A DNA stretch of 24,000 nt, from NCBI GenBank assembly GCA_016201215.1, contig JACQDH010000002.1:3303-27302 (forward strand). The letters run 5' to 3'. Under the pieces are notes generated by a model that was given only the letters and a program-made list of their open reading frames with translations, did not search any database and was not told the DNA's origin. This document shows positions 4,478-22,078 of this stretch, in pieces. Numbering within the stretch: position 1 is the first letter of the stretch; every line of letters starts with the position of its first letter. This DNA is from Acidobacteriota bacterium (GTDB lineage: Bacteria; Acidobacteriota; Terriglobia; Acidiferrales; UBA7541). Position numbers and translations under genes: made by a program.

Positions 4478-6457
4478 ATGGCCTGGTTCAAACGCGAGAA
4501 GAAGGCGATCGAACAGCCCACGCCGCCCGACGAGCGACGCGTCAAGACCGAGGGCTTGTGGATCAAGTGCGAGGCCTGCCGCGCCATCGTCTGGAAGAAG
4601 GACCTTGAGACCAACTGGCAGGTCTGCCCGAAGTGCCAGCACCACTTCAAGCTGGACGCGCGGCGGCGCCTGGAGCTGCTGCTCGACGGTCGCTGGCTGG
4701 AACACGAGGTCGCAATGGCCTCCACCGACCCGCTCGGGTTTACGGACTCCAAGCCTTACGCCCAGCGTTTGAAAGAGGCGCAGAAAAAGCTGGGCCTGTC
4801 CGACGCCATCCTCACCGTGGAAGGCCAACTGGCCGGCCGCCCGCTGGTCTGCTGCTCGATGGAGTTCGGCTTCATCGGCGGCTCGATGGGCGCGGTGGTG
4901 GGCGAGAAGGTAACGCGCGCGATCGAGCTGGCCATCGAAAAGAAGCTGCCGCTGGTGATCGTCTCCTGCTCGGGCGGCGCGCGCATGATGGAAGGCACCA
5001 TCAGCCTGATGCAGCTCGCCAAGGTCTCCGCGGCGCTGGCGCGGCTGGATGAGGTGCGCTTGCCATACGTCTCCGTGCTCACCGATCCCACCACCGGCGG
5101 GGTCACCGCCAGCTACGCCATGCTCGGTGACCTCAACATCGCCGAACCCGGCGCGCTGATCGGCTTTGCCGGCCCGCGCGTCATCGAGCAGACCATCCGG
5201 CAGAAGCTGCCCCCTGGCTTTCAGCGTAGCGAGTTTTTGGTACAGCACGGCTTCCTCGACGCAGTCGTCAAACGCAGTGAATTGATGCTCGACAGCGTCC
5301 TGCGCGCCGCCGGCCTACACACCGCTCTCTACACCTCGCCGCATCTCGAGCGCATCAACGAGCGGCTGCGCCTGGACGGCGAGGACATCTCCGACGCCGA
5401 ATTCACCGAGGCTTTTGAGCGTCTGCAAGCGCTGATCGAGCGCCTGATGGCCACCGGCGAGTTGCCCGCGCACCCGACCTACTTCGAGTGCCTGACGGCC
5501 ATGGCTCTGGAGGTTTTCGCCCGGCGGCAGGTAGATTTCGCCGTCTTCGAGGTGGGCATGGGCGGGCGGCTGGACTCGACCAACATCGTCACGCCCGAGG
5601 TCGCCGTCATCACGCAGATTGATTTCGACCACGAGAATTTCCTGGGCCACTCGATCGAGGAGATTGCCGCAGAAAAAGCCGGCATCATCAAACCCGGCGC
5701 GTGCGTGGTGAGCGCCGCGGAGCGGCCCGAGGCACGCGCGGTGATTGCGCGGCGCGCTGCAGAAAGGGACGCGCGGCTGGTGGAGGTGGACACCGCCTAT
5801 CGCATCGAGGAGATGCAGACCTCAGCGGGTTGCTATCGCGCCGTGATTTCTTCAGCGCACTCCGCAAAGCGCGTGGAGCTGGCGCCGCCGCTGCCCGGGC
5901 GCTTCCAGGTGCGCAACGCCCTGACCGCATTGGCCGCGGCGCGCCTGCTCACTGAGCGCGGATATCCTCTCGATGATGCGGCCATCGCGCGCGGCATCGC
6001 TACGGTCCGCTGGCCCGGGCGCCTGGAAAAAGTCCAGGACCGGCCCGCGGTCTATCTCGACGGCACCCACAACCCCGCCGGCGCGCGCGAGTTGCTGGCG
6101 TTTTGGGACGAGCATTTCGCCGGCTGCCGCATCCACCTGGTCTATGGTGCGATGCGCGATAAAGCGGTTGATGAAATTACCGGCCTGCTCTTCCCGCGCG
6201 CGGCGACGGTCACGCTCACGCAGCCGCGCCAGCCCCGCGCGATCTCCGCCGGTGTGCTCTTAAAGATGACGCGCCACCTCAACGATTCGATCGAGGTTGC
6301 CGAAGCGCCGGAAGAAGCGCTCGAAGACGCCTTGGATCTTGCCGCCCCTGGCGATGCGGTGTTTGCCACGGGCTCGCTTTACCTGGCCGGCGACCTCCGC
6401 CGCTGGTGGTTTGCCCGCCGCGCCAGTCAGGCCGCCACCGCTCCCAGCACAGACTGA
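4478..6457 (+). CDS. accD/folC: in-frame fusion ORF: acetyl-CoA carboxylase carboxyltransferase beta (AccD, about 4478-5285) joined to an N-terminally truncated folylpolyglutamate/dihydrofolate synthase (FolC, about 5286-6457)
   Basis: The AccD part has a Zn-ribbon (CEACRAIVWKKDLETNWQVCPKCQHH), FGFIGGSMG, SGGARMMEG and FQRSEFLVQHGFLDAVVKRSEL. The sequence then continues directly as MLDSVLRAAGLHTALYTSPHL..., which matches FolC just after its P-loop. Later FolC motifs are present: EVGMGGRLDSTN, DFDH, GRFQ, DGTHNP. Confidence 0.85.
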   Translation: MAWFKREKKAIEQPTPPDERRVKTEGLWIKCEACRAIVWKKDLETNWQVCPKCQHHFKLDARRRLELLLDGRWLEHEVAMASTDPLGFTDSKPYAQRLKEAQKKLGLSDAILTVEGQLAGRPLVCCSMEFGFIGGSMGAVVGEKVTRAIELAIEKKLPLVIVSCSGGARMMEGTISLMQLAKVSAALARLDEVRLPYVSVLTDPTTGGVTASYAMLGDLNIAEPGALIGFAGPRVIEQTIRQKLPPGFQRSEFLVQHGFLDAVVKRSELMLDSVLRAAGLHTALYTSPHLERINERLRLDGEDISDAEFTEAFERLQALIERLMATGELPAHPTYFECLTAMALEVFARRQVDFAVFEVGMGGRLDSTNIVTPEVAVITQIDFDHENFLGHSIEEIAAEKAGIIKPGACVVSAAERPEARAVIARRAAERDARLVEVDTAYRIEEMQTSAGCYRAVISSAHSAKRVELAPPLPGRFQVRNALTALAAARLLTERGYPLDDAAIARGIATVRWPGRLEKVQDRPAVYLDGTHNPAGARELLAFWDEHFAGCRIHLVYGAMRDKAVDEITGLLFPRAATVTLTQPRQPRAISAGVLLKMTRHLNDSIEVAEAPEEALEDALDLAAPGDAVFATGSLYLAGDLRRWWFARRASQAATAPSTD

Positions 6458-16470: not shown

Positions 16471-18066
<1,596 letters not shown>

Positions 18067-18091
18067 CGCGTCGGAGCGAGGGCGGCCGGCT

Positions 18092-18172
18092 CGAGCGAAG
18101 CTCCCGCGCAGCGGGAACACCAACCCCAAGAAGAAGCACGGCAACATCCCGCTGTCGCAAATGGTCTGTTGA
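18092..18172 (+). pseudogene. relic second copy of the carboxyltransferase 3' terminus (RAKL...[12 protein letters not shown]), out of frame with the intact gene
   Basis: Positions 18119-18154 encode [12 protein letters not shown], identical to 18028-18063. There are 7 nucleotide differences, all at third codon positions. RAKL at 18092-18103 likewise matches 17980-17991 with 2 synonymous changes. Confidence 0.6.
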
Positions 18173-18197
18173 CTAAAGTCATCACCGGCATTATCCT
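18169..18197 (+). promoter_or_regulatory. candidate promoter for the methyltransferase gene (possibly a leaderless transcript)
   Basis: TTGACT (18169-18174), a 17-nt spacer, then TATCCT (18192-18197). The first ATG (18205) lies 8 nt after the -10 and has no Shine-Dalgarno. Confidence 0.3.
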
Positions 18198-18204
18198 TGG
18201 GTCC

Positions 18205-19110
18205 ATGTTGGCGTGTAAGCCTTACTACGAGACTCATCTCGGAAGAGCTTACCTGGGTGATTGCCTAAGAATCATGCGCCAATTGCCCGACGATTCGGTC
18301 AACTTAGTGATGACTTCGCCGCCTTTCGGCCTTGCTTTTAAGAAGGAGTACGGCAACCCGGATTCAGACGACTACGTAGAGTGGTTCCTGCCGCATGCGC
18401 GGGAGATGAAACGGCTCATTAAGAAGGACGGGAGCATCGTCATAGACATAGGCGGTGCCTGGAAGAAAGGAAATCCGACTCGGTCTCTTTACCAGTTCAA
18501 GTTGCTGCTAACTCTCTGTGAAGAGGTTGGTCTTCACCTTGCCCAGGACTTTTATTGGTTCCGACCGGCCGCCCTACCCGCGCCTGCCGAGTGGGTCGCC
18601 GTCAGGCGGATTCGAGTCAAGGACTCAGTGAACTGCATTTGGTGGTTGAGCAAGACCGAATGGCCGAAAGCCAGCAACCGAAATGTACTGCAGCCGTACA
18701 GCAAAGATATGATCCGCCTCCTCCAGAAAGGGTACAGGTCAAAACTTCGTCCGTCCGGCCATTTCGTGACGCCCAAGTTCATGAGTGACCGCGGTGGTGC
18801 GATTCCACCGAACCTTCTACAAGTGGGCGGCAATGAATCCAACAGCCACTATCTCAAAGCTTGTGGAGAAGCAGGACTTAGACCTCACCCGGCTCGCTTC
18901 CCCAGAGAGATACCAGAGTTTTTCATTAAGCTGACCACCGAGGAAACGGATTGGGTCCTGGACCCGTTCGCAGGTTCAAACGTGACTGGCGAGGCCGCTG
19001 AGTTTATGAACAGGCGTTGGATCGCTATAGAAATCAGGAAGGACTATTTGGAAGGATCACTTTTCCGCTTCGAGGAGCCAGAGCTCTTTCGCAGCGCATC
19101 TGCCCGTTAA
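18205..19110 (+). CDS. Type II DNA methyltransferase, beta-class amino-MTase (N4-cytosine or N6-adenine; SPPF favours m4C)
   Basis: Motif IV is TSPPFGL (SPPF at 18316-18327), near the N-terminus. AdoMet motif I is [10 protein letters not shown] (18961-18990), near the C-terminus. This motif order defines the beta class. The region is low-GC. The track start TTG 18169 coincides with the putative -35, so I prefer ATG 18205. Confidence 0.85.
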
Positions 19111-19331
19111 GTCTTCCGCCGTTCCGCCAAAGCGATCATGGTGCTGAGCGGTACATCGAGTGCTTCGGCTAACCTCTTTGCGGTCTCCAGAGTCGGATGA
19201 CGCTTCCCGCGTTCGATCATGCTAACGAAGGTGCGGTCCAAATCGGCGAGCTCGGCGAGCTTTTCTTGAGAAAGTCCTCGTCGAGTGCGGACTTCTCGCA
19301 CAACTTCTCCGAATCTGGCTGAAAAACTCAC
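19107..19331 (-). CDS. controller (C) protein-like XRE-family HTH regulator of the R-M system
   Basis: 74 aa with a GTG start. [41 protein letters not shown] matches the hallmark SQE.LA....DRT(Y/F)(I/V)S.IERG.R.P(S/T) pattern of R-M C proteins. It sits between the R and M genes. Confidence 0.75.
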
Positions 19332-19337
19332 CAGTCG

Positions 19338-19877
19338 CTACACCAACCGCAGCGCCGAAATCAAATCCTCGCGCCAGTAGCCACGATAGGCCGTGGATTC
19401 TCCCAAGGAGACTCTATTGTCGATGCGGCCGCGATAGGCCTTGTGGCGAGCAAGCTTTGCGGTAGCTATGAATCGAAATTCCCACCGCTTGGTTTGGTTG
19501 AAGAGGCACGCCGCAAGGACTTGGAATTCTGAAGGCTTATAAAACCTTCCTTGTGGTCCAACCGTTTTCGCGTATCGGGTCCTCATGAAATCGACCGTAA
19601 TCTCTCCGCGTCTCAATGTTTTCTGGACGTTCTTACATTCGACAAGATATTTGCGTCCTTCAAAGAGCACCCAGAAGTCCGATTTCCCTTCCTCGACCGG
19701 CGAACCGAAGTCAGTGATCTGGCGCATGTCACGCATTGTAGTCAGATACTGTCGAAGATGCTCTTGCGCTATTCCTCCCTTAACCGCTACAAGCAAGCGA
19801 CTATTTCTATGGATTACGTCCAGGATGGTAGATGCCGGCAGGGCAAACATCTTCTCGAGCGGGTGCTCTTGACTCAT
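19338..19877 (-). CDS. Type II restriction endonuclease candidate (PD-(D/E)XK fold)
   Basis: The D-x12-E-x-K motif is SDFWVLFEGRKYLVECK (D codon 19677-19679, E 19638-19640, K 19632-19634). It is adjacent to the MTase and C gene and is low-GC. An alternative ATG at 19934 would place the C-boxes inside the ORF. No specific REase family recognised. Confidence 0.6.
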   Translation of the reverse strand: MSQEHPLEKMFALPASTILDVIHRNSRLLVAVKGGIAQEHLRQYLTTMRDMRQITDFGSPVEEGKSDFWVLFEGRKYLVECKNVQKTLRRGEITVDFMRTRYAKTVGPQGRFYKPSEFQVLAACLFNQTKRWEFRFIATAKLARHKAYRGRIDNRVSLGESTAYRGYWREDLISALRLV

Positions 19878-19907
19878 AGGCGTGATGGGACAACATGCCC
19901 CCAGTGT

Positions 19908-19932
19908 GACTAATAGTCTACGGACTATAGTC
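19908..19932 (-). promoter_or_regulatory. tandem C-box-like operator (two GACT..AGTC palindromes)
   Basis: The minus strand reads GACTATAGTC-CGTA-GACTATTAGTC (19932 down to 19908). This is two palindromes separated by 4 nt, directly upstream of the endonuclease ORF. A third degenerate copy, GACTCATAGGCGTG, lies at 19871-19884 on the plus strand and overlaps ATG 19877. Confidence 0.6.
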
Positions 19933-20012
19933 ATATATCACTTCAGGGGCGCGGGGAGATTCCGGGGATTTGTGAAATTCTGGTCCGCAGTCGAATGACT
20001 TCTGCCCGGGCG

Positions 20013-20021
20013 TGCTAGAAT
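20013..20021 (+). promoter_or_regulatory. candidate extended -10 promoter for accC at the island's right edge
   Basis: TGCTAGAAT (TGn plus TAGAAT) at 20013-20021, 26 nt upstream of the ATG at 20047. No convincing -35. Confidence 0.25.
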
Positions 20022-20046: not shown

Positions 20047-21591
20047 ATGTTCAAGAAGATTCTGATTGCGAATCGCGGCGAAATTGCCATCCGCATCCTG
20101 CGCGCCTGCCGCGAACTGAGCGTGGGCGCGGTCGCGGTGTTCAGCGAAGCGGACCGCGCTTCGCTGCACGTGCGCCTGGCCGACGAGGCCTATCCGATCG
20201 GGCCCTCGGCTTCCCGCGAAAGCTACCTGCGTATTGACAAGCTGATGGACGTCGCGCGGCGGGCGGGCTGCGACGCCCTGCACCCCGGCTACGGTTTTCT
20301 AGCCGAAAACCACGATCTGCCTCGCGCCTGCGCGGAGGCCGGGGTCACGTTCATCGGGCCGACCGCGGCGGCGATGGAGCAGTTGGGCTCGAAGACCGCG
20401 GCGCGGCAACTGGCGCGGCGCGCGGGCGTGCCCATGGTGCCCGGCACAGTGGATCCCATCGAGCAGCTCGAGGACGCGCAGCGACTCGCACGTGAGACTG
20501 GTTATCCGGTGCTGCTCAAGGCCGTGGCCGGCGGCGGGGGCAAGGGCATGCGGCTGGTCACAAGCGATGCGGAGCTGCCCGCGGCGTGGCGCGACGCCAG
20601 CTCCGAGGCGCTCAACGCCTTCGGCGATGCCCGGCTTTATCTCGAGAAGTTCCTCGAGCGCCCGCGGCACATCGAAATCCAGATCCTCGGCGACCTGCAC
20701 GGCCACCTCGTATATCTTGGCGAGCGTGAATGTTCCGTCCAGCGGCGCCACCAGAAGGTGATTGAGGAGGCGCCCTCCCCGGTGGTGGATGCCAAGCTGC
20801 GCCGCGCGATGGGCGAGGCGGCGGTGGCGCTGGCGCGCGCAGCGGGCTACACCAACGCCGGCACGATCGAATTCCTGGTGGACGCGTCGCGCAATTTTTA
20901 TTTTCTCGAGGTCAACACGCGCCTGCAGGTGGAGCATCCGGTCACGGAAGCGGTCACCGGCTTCGACCTAGTCAAGCTGCAAATCCGCGTTGCCGCGCGC
21001 GAGCCGCTGCCCTTCACGCAGGAGGATGTCGCCCTGCGCGGGCACGCCATGGAGTGCCGCATCTACGCCGAAGACCCGGACAACAACTTTTTTCCGTCGC
21101 CCGGAAAAATCCTCGCGCGGCGCGTGCCCTTCGGCCCGGGGATTCGCCTGGACGACGGCGTATATCCCGGCTGGACCGTGCCGACCGACTACGACCCGCT
21201 GTTGGGCAAACTGATTGCCTGGGGAAACGACCGCGCCGAAACCATCGCGCGCATGAAGCGGGCGCTCGAGGAATACTACATCACCGGCATCAAGACCAAC
21301 GTCGGGCTGTTCCGGAGCATCCTGGCCGACCCGGGGTTCCTGCGCGGCGAAATCCACACGCGCTGGCTTGACGACCGGTTGCAGACGTCTGCGAAACCCG
21401 CCCCGGCCGCAGCGAAGCCAGTCGACGACAGGCAGCCGCGGATGGAAGATGTGGCCCTGCTGGCCGCGGTGCTCTGGCACCTGGAAAACAACAGCGCCCC
21501 GGCGAAGGCGGCCAATCAGCAGGCGAATGCGGAATCGCGCTGGAAGCTCGAAGGCCGCCGCGCGGTGCTCGACAGGAGTCCGGGAAGGTGA
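20047..21591 (+). CDS. accC: biotin carboxylase subunit of acetyl/propionyl-CoA carboxylase (with a C-terminal extension)
   Basis: MFKKILIANRGEIAIRI, HPGYGFLAEN, GGGGKGMR, EKF...PRHIEIQ, ERECSVQRRHQK, EVNTRLQVEHPVTE and RIYAEDP are full-length canonical ATP-grasp biotin carboxylase motifs. Confidence 0.92.
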   Translation: MFKKILIANRGEIAIRILRACRELSVGAVAVFSEADRASLHVRLADEAYPIGPSASRESYLRIDKLMDVARRAGCDALHPGYGFLAENHDLPRACAEAGVTFIGPTAAAMEQLGSKTAARQLARRAGVPMVPGTVDPIEQLEDAQRLARETGYPVLLKAVAGGGGKGMRLVTSDAELPAAWRDASSEALNAFGDARLYLEKFLERPRHIEIQILGDLHGHLVYLGERECSVQRRHQKVIEEAPSPVVDAKLRRAMGEAAVALARAAGYTNAGTIEFLVDASRNFYFLEVNTRLQVEHPVTEAVTGFDLVKLQIRVAAREPLPFTQEDVALRGHAMECRIYAEDPDNNFFPSPGKILARRVPFGPGIRLDDGVYPGWTVPTDYDPLLGKLIAWGNDRAETIARMKRALEEYYITGIKTNVGLFRSILADPGFLRGEIHTRWLDDRLQTSAKPAPAAAKPVDDRQPRMEDVALLAAVLWHLENNSAPAKAANQQANAESRWKLEGRRAVLDRSPGR

Positions 21592-21640: not shown

Positions 21641-22078
21641 ATGAAATGGATTACCCGGCAACACGCCAAAGTGGATCGCGTGGCCTGTCCCTGGCTGATC
21701 CGGCGCTTCATTGATGCGGATGCCGAGTTCCTGTTTGCACCGGAGAACGAAGTGCTGAAGATCGCCGAGCGCGAAGAAGCCGTGCCGTTCGATATGCCCC
21801 GTAACCCGGAGTTGAAGTTCACCCACCACAGCGGCCTGTGCACGTTTGAAGTGCTGATCCGCGAGTTCAACCTGAAAGAGCCGGGCCTGACGCGCCTGGC
21901 GAAAATCGTACACGCGGCGGACCTCAGCGGCGAGGAGCACAAAGCTCCCGAGGCCGCGGGGCTCAAGGCCGTCGCCGAGGGTTTCCATGCGCTCAATCTG
22001 ACCGACAAGGAACGCTTGGCCTACGGTTATCCGATCTACGAGGCACTCTACGCCTGGTGCCGGAAGCAAGGAAAATGA
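21641..22078 (+). CDS. ChrB C-terminal domain-like protein (chromate-resistance 'Chrome_Resist' family)
   Basis: MKWITRQHAKVDRVACPWLIRRFIDADAEFLF matches my recollection of the conserved N-terminal signature of this family. GGAGTGAGGAG lies upstream of ATG 21641. Its stop overlaps the BCCP start (ATGA). Confidence 0.7.
   Translation: MKWITRQHAKVDRVACPWLIRRFIDADAEFLFAPENEVLKIAEREEAVPFDMPRNPELKFTHHSGLCTFEVLIREFNLKEPGLTRLAKIVHAADLSGEEHKAPEAAGLKAVAEGFHALNLTDKERLAYGYPIYEALYAWCRKQGK

Follow-up and report, generated by a model that had tools for sequence, protein, structure and literature searches.

In described restriction-modification (R-M) systems with a controller protein (C), the C-box consensus is GACT-N3-AGTC-N4-GACT-N3-AGTC with a conserved central GT, and a DR(T/S)Y recognition helix goes together with a CGTG-type spacer (PMC2175313). 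Canonically, the C gene is located upstream of a promoterless restriction endonuclease (REase) gene (PMC3850674, PMC12707154). In the Esp1396I system, C represses the methyltransferase (MTase) gene early, and it activates and then later represses the CR promoter (PMC2691842). Here, we describe a unit of three genes encoding an MTase (M), a nuclease (R) and a controller protein, which lies between the carboxyltransferase gene pccB and the biotin carboxylase gene accC of an Acidobacteriota bacterium. It was found in a stretch of 24,000 nt (assembly GCA_016201215.1, contig JACQDH010000002.1, positions 3,303 to 27,302 of the forward strand), referred to as the window in the following. Positions 18167-19934 of this window very probably represent a horizontally acquired, intact, C-protein-controlled Type II R-M module in an Acidobacteriota (Terriglobia, 'Acidoferrales/gp2'-like) chromosome.

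The module is ordinary in kind, and the findings on this cassette do not overturn the current understanding of such systems. It is distinguished by a nuclease family unrecognised by the searched HMM libraries and PDB sequences, by the combination of a PvuII-type MTase with a nuclease unrelated to R.PvuII, and by an operon in which R precedes C. Like PvuII, the module belongs to the three-gene Type IIP systems that have a C protein, it carries a GACT...AGTC double C-box over the promoter of the nuclease operon, and its M is homologous to M.PvuII over the full length. In contrast to PvuII, its nuclease is not R.PvuII-like, M is convergent instead of divergent, C lies downstream of R, and a DRTF helix with a CGTA/CGTG spacer (C.AhdI subgroup) replaces the HRTY helix with its TGTA spacer (PMC2175313). 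With Esp1396I the module shares the convergent orientation of M and the nuclease operon as well as a double operator at the nuclease promoter and a single one on the M promoter (PMC2691842). However, Esp1396I has the order C then R with an ordinary leader, while the convergent genes of the window overlap at their stops without an intergenic terminator, and the enzymes of the two systems are unrelated. The DR(T/S)Y-type helix and the CGTG-type central spacer with its conserved GT also occur with C.AhdI and C.BclI (PMC2175313), but the helix of the window ends in F instead of Y, the left operator (O_L) has a 2-nt centre, and the operators precede R and not the C gene.

A low-GC unit in the pccB-accC interval

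The initial annotation, made from the letters alone, had proposed a foreign low-GC block of three genes inserted inside a carboxylase operon, and its hand counts of guanine plus cytosine (G+C) in single lines were exact on recount (32/60, 30/60, 37/60 and 45/60). Over its 1768 bp, the unit has a G+C of 0.531, compared to 0.657 in the rest of the window. It thereby lies 11 standard deviations (SD) below 374 segments of equal length taken elsewhere in the window (mean 0.657, SD 0.011, minimum 0.617). Likewise, the G+C at third codon positions (GC3) is 0.62 in M, 0.56 in C and 0.59 in R versus 0.84-0.88 in pccB, accC, the biotin carboxyl carrier protein gene and surA. All three open reading frames (ORFs) were recovered, their assignments as MTase, nuclease and C protein hold, and all three genes are under purifying selection, with ratios of nonsynonymous to synonymous divergence (dN/dS) of 0.18 for R, 0.05 for C and 0.10 for M in comparison to the related locus L011. 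The unit is flanked on the left by pccB (PF01039, 3.8e-206), which ends with a TAG stop at 18066, and on the right by accC, which starts at 20047. The closest relatives of the flanking genes are found in metagenome-assembled Acidobacteriota/Terriglobia genomes ('gp2', Acidoferrales). The coordinates of all features are summarized in Table 1.

Table 1. Features of the R-M unit and its borders (window coordinates; a dot marks features given without a strand).
Feature	Coordinates	Strand	Basis or remark
Functional pccB 3' end (tail A), last 14 codons	18023..18066	+	rare codons with AT endings; GC3 of the gene 0.87
GC-rich 46-nt spacer between the pccB tails	18068..18113	.	diverged equivalent in L109
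Ghost copy of the pccB 3' end (tail B), out of frame, stop lost	18114..18158	+	80% identical to 18023-18067
Conserved low-GC R-M unit, 1768 bp, from TGTTGACTAAAGTCATCA to GACTATAGTCAT	18167..19934	.	equal ends in at least 12 genomic contexts; G+C
Putative M promoter: -35 TTGACT (18169-18174), 17-nt spacer, -10 TATCCT (18192-18197)	18169..18197	+	promoter scan
Single C-box-like palindrome GACTAAAGTC (O_M), over the -35 of the M promoter	18171..18180	.	motif search; conserved across contexts
M, beta-class N4-cytosine DNA methyltransferase, 301 aa	18205..19110	+	PF01555, M.PvuII homology, PADLOC MTase_II
C, controller protein, 74 aa, GTG start	19107..19331	-	HTH_3, C.BclI/C.AhdI, PADLOC Control_protein
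R, PD-(D/E)XK nuclease, presumed restriction endonuclease, 179 aa, motif (P/S)D68-x12-E81-C-K83	19338..19877	-	alignment, AlphaFold2 (AF2), Foldseek
Putative C-dependent R-C promoter: -35-like TAGACT (19920-19915), 17-nt spacer, -10-like CATGTT (19897-19892)	19892..19920	-	PvuII analogy
Double C-box: GACT-AT-AGTC (O_L, 19932-19923), CGTA spacer, GACT-ATT-AGTC (O_R, 19918-19908)	19908..19932	-	consensus match
Native extended -10-like element TGCTAGAAT, of the host and not of the cassette	20013..20021	+	conserved in relatives

The insertion site was compared across 80 pccB loci, one genome per species (loci are given as L numbers). In L010, L039, L042, L043 and L046, pccB and accC are only 11-99 nt apart, and the synteny check proposed with the initial annotation supports an insertion. 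Most other fetched pccB loci carry 0.3-3.5 kb of unrelated genes in the gap, including those for an S9 peptidase, PqqC/TenA-like and RpiA-like proteins, hicAB and vapC. Within this set, the cassette occupies the pccB-accC gap only in L011 and L005/L006, and it is missing in those relatives that are closest to the window (L010) and to L005 (L014, L016-L018, L020, L034). Instead of occurring with host-like composition in all relatives, it shows a patchy distribution, and its G+C is foreign wherever it is found. Because the gaps of the relatives vary and accC keeps TGCTAGAAT, we regard the cassette as an insertion into a variable spacer, not into a tight operon. Thus, the claimed insertion stands, but the picture of a disrupted operon was overstated. 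The TGCTAGAAT element is located ~25-30 nt upstream of the accC start and is kept in L005, L011, L039, L042, L043 and L092, suggesting that, in this clade, transcription of accC does not depend on pccB. The hotspot occupied by the cassette is intergenic, and neither pccB nor accC is interrupted.

At least four positions of the unit were distinguished within this interval. It begins 9 nt past the pccB stop in L011, L093 and L094. The window and L109 have the same type of junction, but at a ghost pccB tail, 100 nt past the functional stop. In L005, the unit is separated from the pccB stop by 8 nt and from the downstream hicB ATG by 5 nt, and it replaces the hicB promoter region. It truncates hicB in L095 and L096, the hicB ORF of L095 continuing directly into TGTTGA, and L097-L100 and L111 show a further positional variant. 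In these soil Acidobacteria, the spacer repeatedly takes up small selfish modules (the cassette, hicAB and vapC) and provides a small-scale model of a hotspot lacking mobility genes. Other cargo of the interval comprises hicAB (L014 and L033), vapC (L034) and a hicB remnant (L016); in L095 and L097, hicB is truncated by the R-M unit and hicA is gone. A remnant of hicB on the right side of the cassette in the window was considered as well, but is unsupported, as only the accC promoter element is common to this region, L005 and L014.

These data also bear on whether the cassette could be old resident DNA, inserted once in a common ancestor of Acidoferrales-like lineages and then inherited vertically with repeated loss. 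The use of the same interval in three or four lineage groups would fit this scenario, as would the purifying selection on all cassette genes and the identities between window and L005, which are of the same order in the cassette (R 77%, M 80%) and the flanks (pccB 85%, accC 70%). However, the nearest relatives lack the cassette, as described above, and its fine position differs: in L005 it precedes hicB, in L095 and L097 it follows or truncates this gene, and the window has no hicB at all. The same unit is also present at unrelated loci of other genomes, and everywhere its G+C remains 10-13 points lower than that of the flanks. Finally, the synonymous divergence (dS) between window and L011 is 0.24-0.44 in the cassette, about half of the 0.66-0.81 in the flanks, and compared to L005 the cassette is saturated although the flanks, at 1.2-1.4, are not (all dS values are rough owing to composition differences). 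This discordance between cassette and flanks, in both directions, argues against simple co-divergence. Taken as a whole, we consider purely vertical descent unlikely and favour horizontal acquisition of the module.

A PvuII-type methyltransferase and an unannotated nuclease family

The initial annotation had recognised M as a beta-class amino-MTase with an SPPF motif. Database comparisons (PF01555, 4.8e-39; PADLOC MTase_II, 1.7e-115) agree, and M proved to be a full-length homologue of the N4-methylcytosine (m4C) enzyme M.PvuII (1boo; E 1.7e-103), with 51% identity evenly spread over 292 columns and with aligned catalytic SPPF and S-adenosylmethionine-binding motifs. The start had been placed at TTG 18169. 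Because TTGACT (18169-18174) reads as the -35 of a promoter, M most likely starts at ATG 18205 instead, and related loci have a start codon at the equivalent position. The putative M promoter is kept in L011, L005, L001 and L007. Its -10 TATCCT precedes the ATG by 7 nt, and we infer that the M mRNA is leaderless or nearly so.

Because M is homologous to M.PvuII, CAGCTG, modified as m4C, is the best guess for the specificity of the system, at roughly even odds. The hexamer is absent from the window, where 8.2 occurrences were expected, and it is the most depleted hexamer palindrome in the cassette loci (13 observed, 37.3 expected, ratio 0.35), but it is so in cassette-free relatives as well (see below). 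The combination of a PvuII-type m4C MTase with a nuclease unrelated to R.PvuII makes the pair a candidate for a non-homologous isoschizomer or for a new specificity.

For R, we adopted the start at ATG 19877 suggested before, as a start at 19934 falls within the C-box. No match to R was found in Pfam, NCBIfam, PADLOC or PHROGs, nor among PDB sequences (E up to 10), and all 45 homologues of a first search were unnamed or 'hypothetical'. Across 42 aligned sequences, D68, E81 and K83 are invariant (pattern PD-x12-E-C-K), and E40 in the preceding long helix is near-invariant. The AF2 model (predicted local distance difference test score, pLDDT, 92.6) has the canonical strand order with strands at 57-59, 69-73 and 76-85, D68 just before strand 2 and E81/K83 within strand 3. 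Searching with this model, Foldseek ranked the homing endonuclease I-Ssp6803I (2ost) first with E 3.7e-6, followed by Hjc, EcoRV and RecU, and R.PvuII was not among the top 50 fold matches. The core fold predicted for R is therefore common to I-Ssp6803I and, more weakly, to archaeal Hjc and EcoRV. However, identities are 10-20% with template modelling scores (TM-scores) of ~0.5, R has an additional three-helix N-terminal part, and its genomic role is that of an R-M partner, not intron homing as for I-Ssp6803I or Holliday junction resolution as for Hjc. The earlier suggestion of a PD-(D/E)XK candidate of no nameable family has thus gained a confidently predicted fold with an invariant D...ExK signature, and the protein belongs to no described family.

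A metagenome scan yielded 65 loci with relatives of R, and nearly all of them (~60) have a PvuII-like MTase beside R that is 50-93% identical to the M of the window. Where R is at least 44% identical (the close subfamily), every locus has all three genes together, with R followed by C and convergent with M. Relatives of R at 29-40% identity stand beside PvuII-like MTases in ~40 further loci; here, R is followed by M on one strand, and some loci have the canonical order C, R, M, with C-boxes upstream of C in L126 and L154. Profile searches extended the family to ~530 clusters at 50% identity. Its members include fusions to the MTaX1 'methylase-associated X1' domain PF20296 (P0062, P0070, P0083 and P0132; ~390-500 aa) and a 251-aa protein (P0064) with an N-terminal HTH_3 fusion, which resembles a C-REase fusion. 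Searching R against plasmids by tblastn gave two RefSeq matches, both annotated as hypothetical, one adjoining an N4/N6-type MTase and the other a C5 MTase; the tblastn search against phages gave no match. These results identify R as a member of an unannotated PD-(D/E)XK nuclease family, whose genes nearly always have a PvuII-like methyltransferase gene as a neighbour. Because this linkage is conserved in three gene arrangements, which is the strongest evidence at hand, R is presumed to be the restriction partner of M.

One could alternatively regard R as no restriction partner at all, so that an orphan or regulatory MTase would stand beside a helix-turn-helix (HTH)/nuclease pair acting as a toxin-antitoxin-like or repair module. 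No library recognises R as an REase, its fold neighbours are resolvases and a homing endonuclease, and the HTH protein also scores with the antitoxin/repressor models HipB and HigA. Nevertheless, R is linked to a PvuII-like MTase in ~60 loci, its remoter homologues adjoin other MTase classes on RefSeq plasmids, and some family members are fused to MTaX1 or an HTH. In addition, the best solved relatives of the HTH protein are controller proteins, and canonical C-boxes are present at both promoters, including that of M. We therefore rate this alternative as highly improbable and retain R as the presumed endonuclease of an R-M system.

The family has been missed by Pfam, NCBIfam, PADLOC and PHROGs and carries the label 'hypothetical' in RefSeq. 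As the nuclease is unrecognised by these libraries, surveys of defence systems would score its loci as orphan methyltransferases, and a family profile would turn many such 'orphan' methyltransferases into complete R-M systems.

Controller protein, operators and a proposed circuit

The third ORF, described before as a C-protein-like HTH, is a genuine C protein (HTH_3, 1.6e-18; PADLOC Control_protein, 9.6e-17) that is accompanied by C-boxes. Among solved proteins, its best relatives are without exception R-M controllers, namely C.BclI (2.5e-14), C.AhdI (4.9e-12) and C.Esp1396I (3clc; 1.5e-7), and its recognition helix reads DRTF. The GTG start of C lies 6 nt past the R stop, and its stop overlaps that of M in a common TTAA. 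A C homologue, missed by gene callers, sits after R in every close related locus. The layout R then C is opposite to the canonical C then R, and a crude, not exhaustive literature search found no precedent for it. An activator-repressor gene placed after the toxic gene would provide a test of how important the order C then R is for the delay between methylation and restriction. Across the R stop and the C start (19332-19349, minus strand), a weak hairpin followed by a T-rich run was noted as a mere consensus match (5 found versus 2.5 expected in shuffles); it could modulate read-through or the translation of C.

The motif GACT-N2-3-AGTC occurs at exactly three sites in the window, compared to an expectation of 0.34, and none of 100 shuffles gave three. 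Two of these sites form the double C-box upstream of R, which is kept in all close loci with the spacer CGTA in some and CGTG in others, and the third is O_M. A CATNTT sequence stands at a constant distance from the C-boxes in all loci.

By analogy to PvuII and Esp1396I, the following circuit can be proposed. On entry into a new host, M would be transcribed at once from its sigma-70-like promoter and would shield the chromosome, the target probably being CAGCTG as m4C. The R-C operon would at first be weakly transcribed, leading to a slow build-up of C, which would be translated from the distal cistron. C dimers would then occupy O_L and activate the R-C promoter. At higher C levels, O_R would be filled and the R-C promoter repressed, and binding to O_M would turn M down.

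Transfer of the unit and the duplicated pccB tail

The ORFs of at least 200 aa in the rest of the window include no integrase or transposase, nor does the unit itself encode one, in agreement with the initial annotation. Its statement that clear terminal repeats were missing has to be revised, as the pccB 3' end recurs in a 45-nt copy and both unit ends carry operator palindromes. Immediately downstream of the functional pccB tail (tail A), the window carries a 46-nt spacer and the ghost copy (tail B), which is written in GC codons and is decaying. In L011 and L094 there is a single tail, and the equivalent of tail B is the functional pccB tail, which abuts the cassette. L109 shares the two-tail layout of the window, and its second copy still ends in TAG. 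No match to the 46-nt spacer (18068-18113) was found in any fetched locus that could have served as its donor.

Two readings of this arrangement can be offered. Either a stub of the donor's pccB came in with the cassette, the junction forming 46 nt past the resident stop, and a deletion between the repeats then gave rise to the L011 type, or a 91-nt patch was added later. Under either reading, the double tail is a trace of recombination between related genomes and not of transposition. A 91-nt tandem duplication was ruled out, as the two units have unrelated second halves. An insertion that duplicates a long stretch of its target was ruled out as well, since both 45-nt copies lie left of the unit and nothing similar is found on its right. 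In this respect, the locus differs from the 'insertion with long target duplication' described for R-M complexes that move without mobility genes, where repeats of >30 bp flank the insert (Furuta, Abe and Kobayashi 2010, PMC2853133), while the copies of the window both lie on the left, 91 nt apart. It resembles these complexes in being a low-GC unit between conserved genes, in lacking an integrase or transposase, and in having a ~45-bp repeat over the 3' end of the upstream gene. The module probably entered the pccB-accC spacer through lateral transfer and through recombination between related genomes, without a transposase or integrase of its own, and the 45-nt ghost pccB 3' end left of the module would be the remaining trace of the transfer event.

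Across at least 12 contexts, the unit measures 1754-1781 bp with sharp limits from TGTTGACTAAAGTCATCA to GACTATAGTCATA, contains no mobility genes, and has a G+C 10-13 points below its flanks in every case. Such uniformity raises the question whether it is a discrete mobile element, with the terminal operator palindromes (TGACTAAAGTCA on the left and TGACTATAGTCA on the right) serving as recombination sites for C, for the nuclease or for a host or trans-acting recombinase. The identical ends (TGTTGACT... to ...GACTATAGTCATA), which form a ~13-bp imperfect inverted repeat, favour this idea, as do the tight junctions with host genes in L005 (8 nt/5 nt) and L095 and a homing endonuclease as the best fold match of R. 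However, no recombinase is encoded, no target-site duplications were detected at ~12 junction pairs, and the only inverted repeats at the unit ends are the operator palindromes themselves. Across ~1 Mb from relatives without the cassette, neither solo C-box scars nor att-like sites were found; outside L011, GACT-N2-3-AGTC occurs 11 times, which is about the chance number, and never in a pccB-accC gap. The contexts are anciently diverged (R 57-80% identical), so that a neutral co-transferred flank would be unrecognisable, and the sharp ends may just mark the limit of selection at two promoters. Moreover, the sole readable recent junction (window, L109 and L011) carries a co-transferred pccB tail. 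A discrete element of this kind therefore seems improbable compared to acquisition by recombination among related genomes. Similarly doubtful is the far-reaching combination in which the block would be an autonomous 'naked' mobile R-M module with operator-palindrome ends moved by its regulator, its nuclease or a host factor, would encode an undescribed REase family with independently evolved CAGCTG specificity, and would run a reversed R-then-C circuit.

Several points weigh against reading the locus as an intact, C-controlled R-M module that spread by recombination. In the R of the window, S replaces the near-invariant P before D68. The centre of O_L has 2 nt versus 3 nt in the consensus, and C lies downstream of R, unlike in the C systems of PMC2175313, PMC3850674 and PMC12707154; this makes the timing logic tentative where R precedes C, and all steps of the circuit proposed above rest on analogy. 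The conservation of the unit ends <10 nt from host genes in several independent contexts, which is tighter than untidy illegitimate recombination predicts. As to specificity, CAGCTG is also the most depleted palindrome in ~1 Mb of cassette-free pccB loci (L010, L012-L089), with 181 observed and 357 expected occurrences (0.51), and at a ratio of 0.69 it is not notably depleted in the distant family loci. Palindrome avoidance was rejected as a read-out of specificity, since CAGCTG ranks first in the cassette-free relatives as well and the measure is non-discriminating. The depletion in these relatives hints at widespread CAGCTG restriction in these Acidobacteria or at a compositional bias.

Two further observations concern the remainder of the window. 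Between accC and the biotin carboxyl carrier gene, a ChrB_C ORF (PF09828, 6e-46; 21650-22078, plus strand) was found elsewhere only in L011 among the fetched pccB loci; with a G+C of 0.61 versus 0.67-0.69 in its neighbours, it has the appearance of another insertion specific to the lineage, in the same carboxylase cluster. Further upstream, a 659-aa ORF (4478-6457, plus strand) joins an AccD zinc ribbon and N-terminal carboxyltransferase part to FolC-type Mur-ligase middle and C-terminal domains, which points either to a fusion of accD and folC or to a frameshift that went unnoticed.

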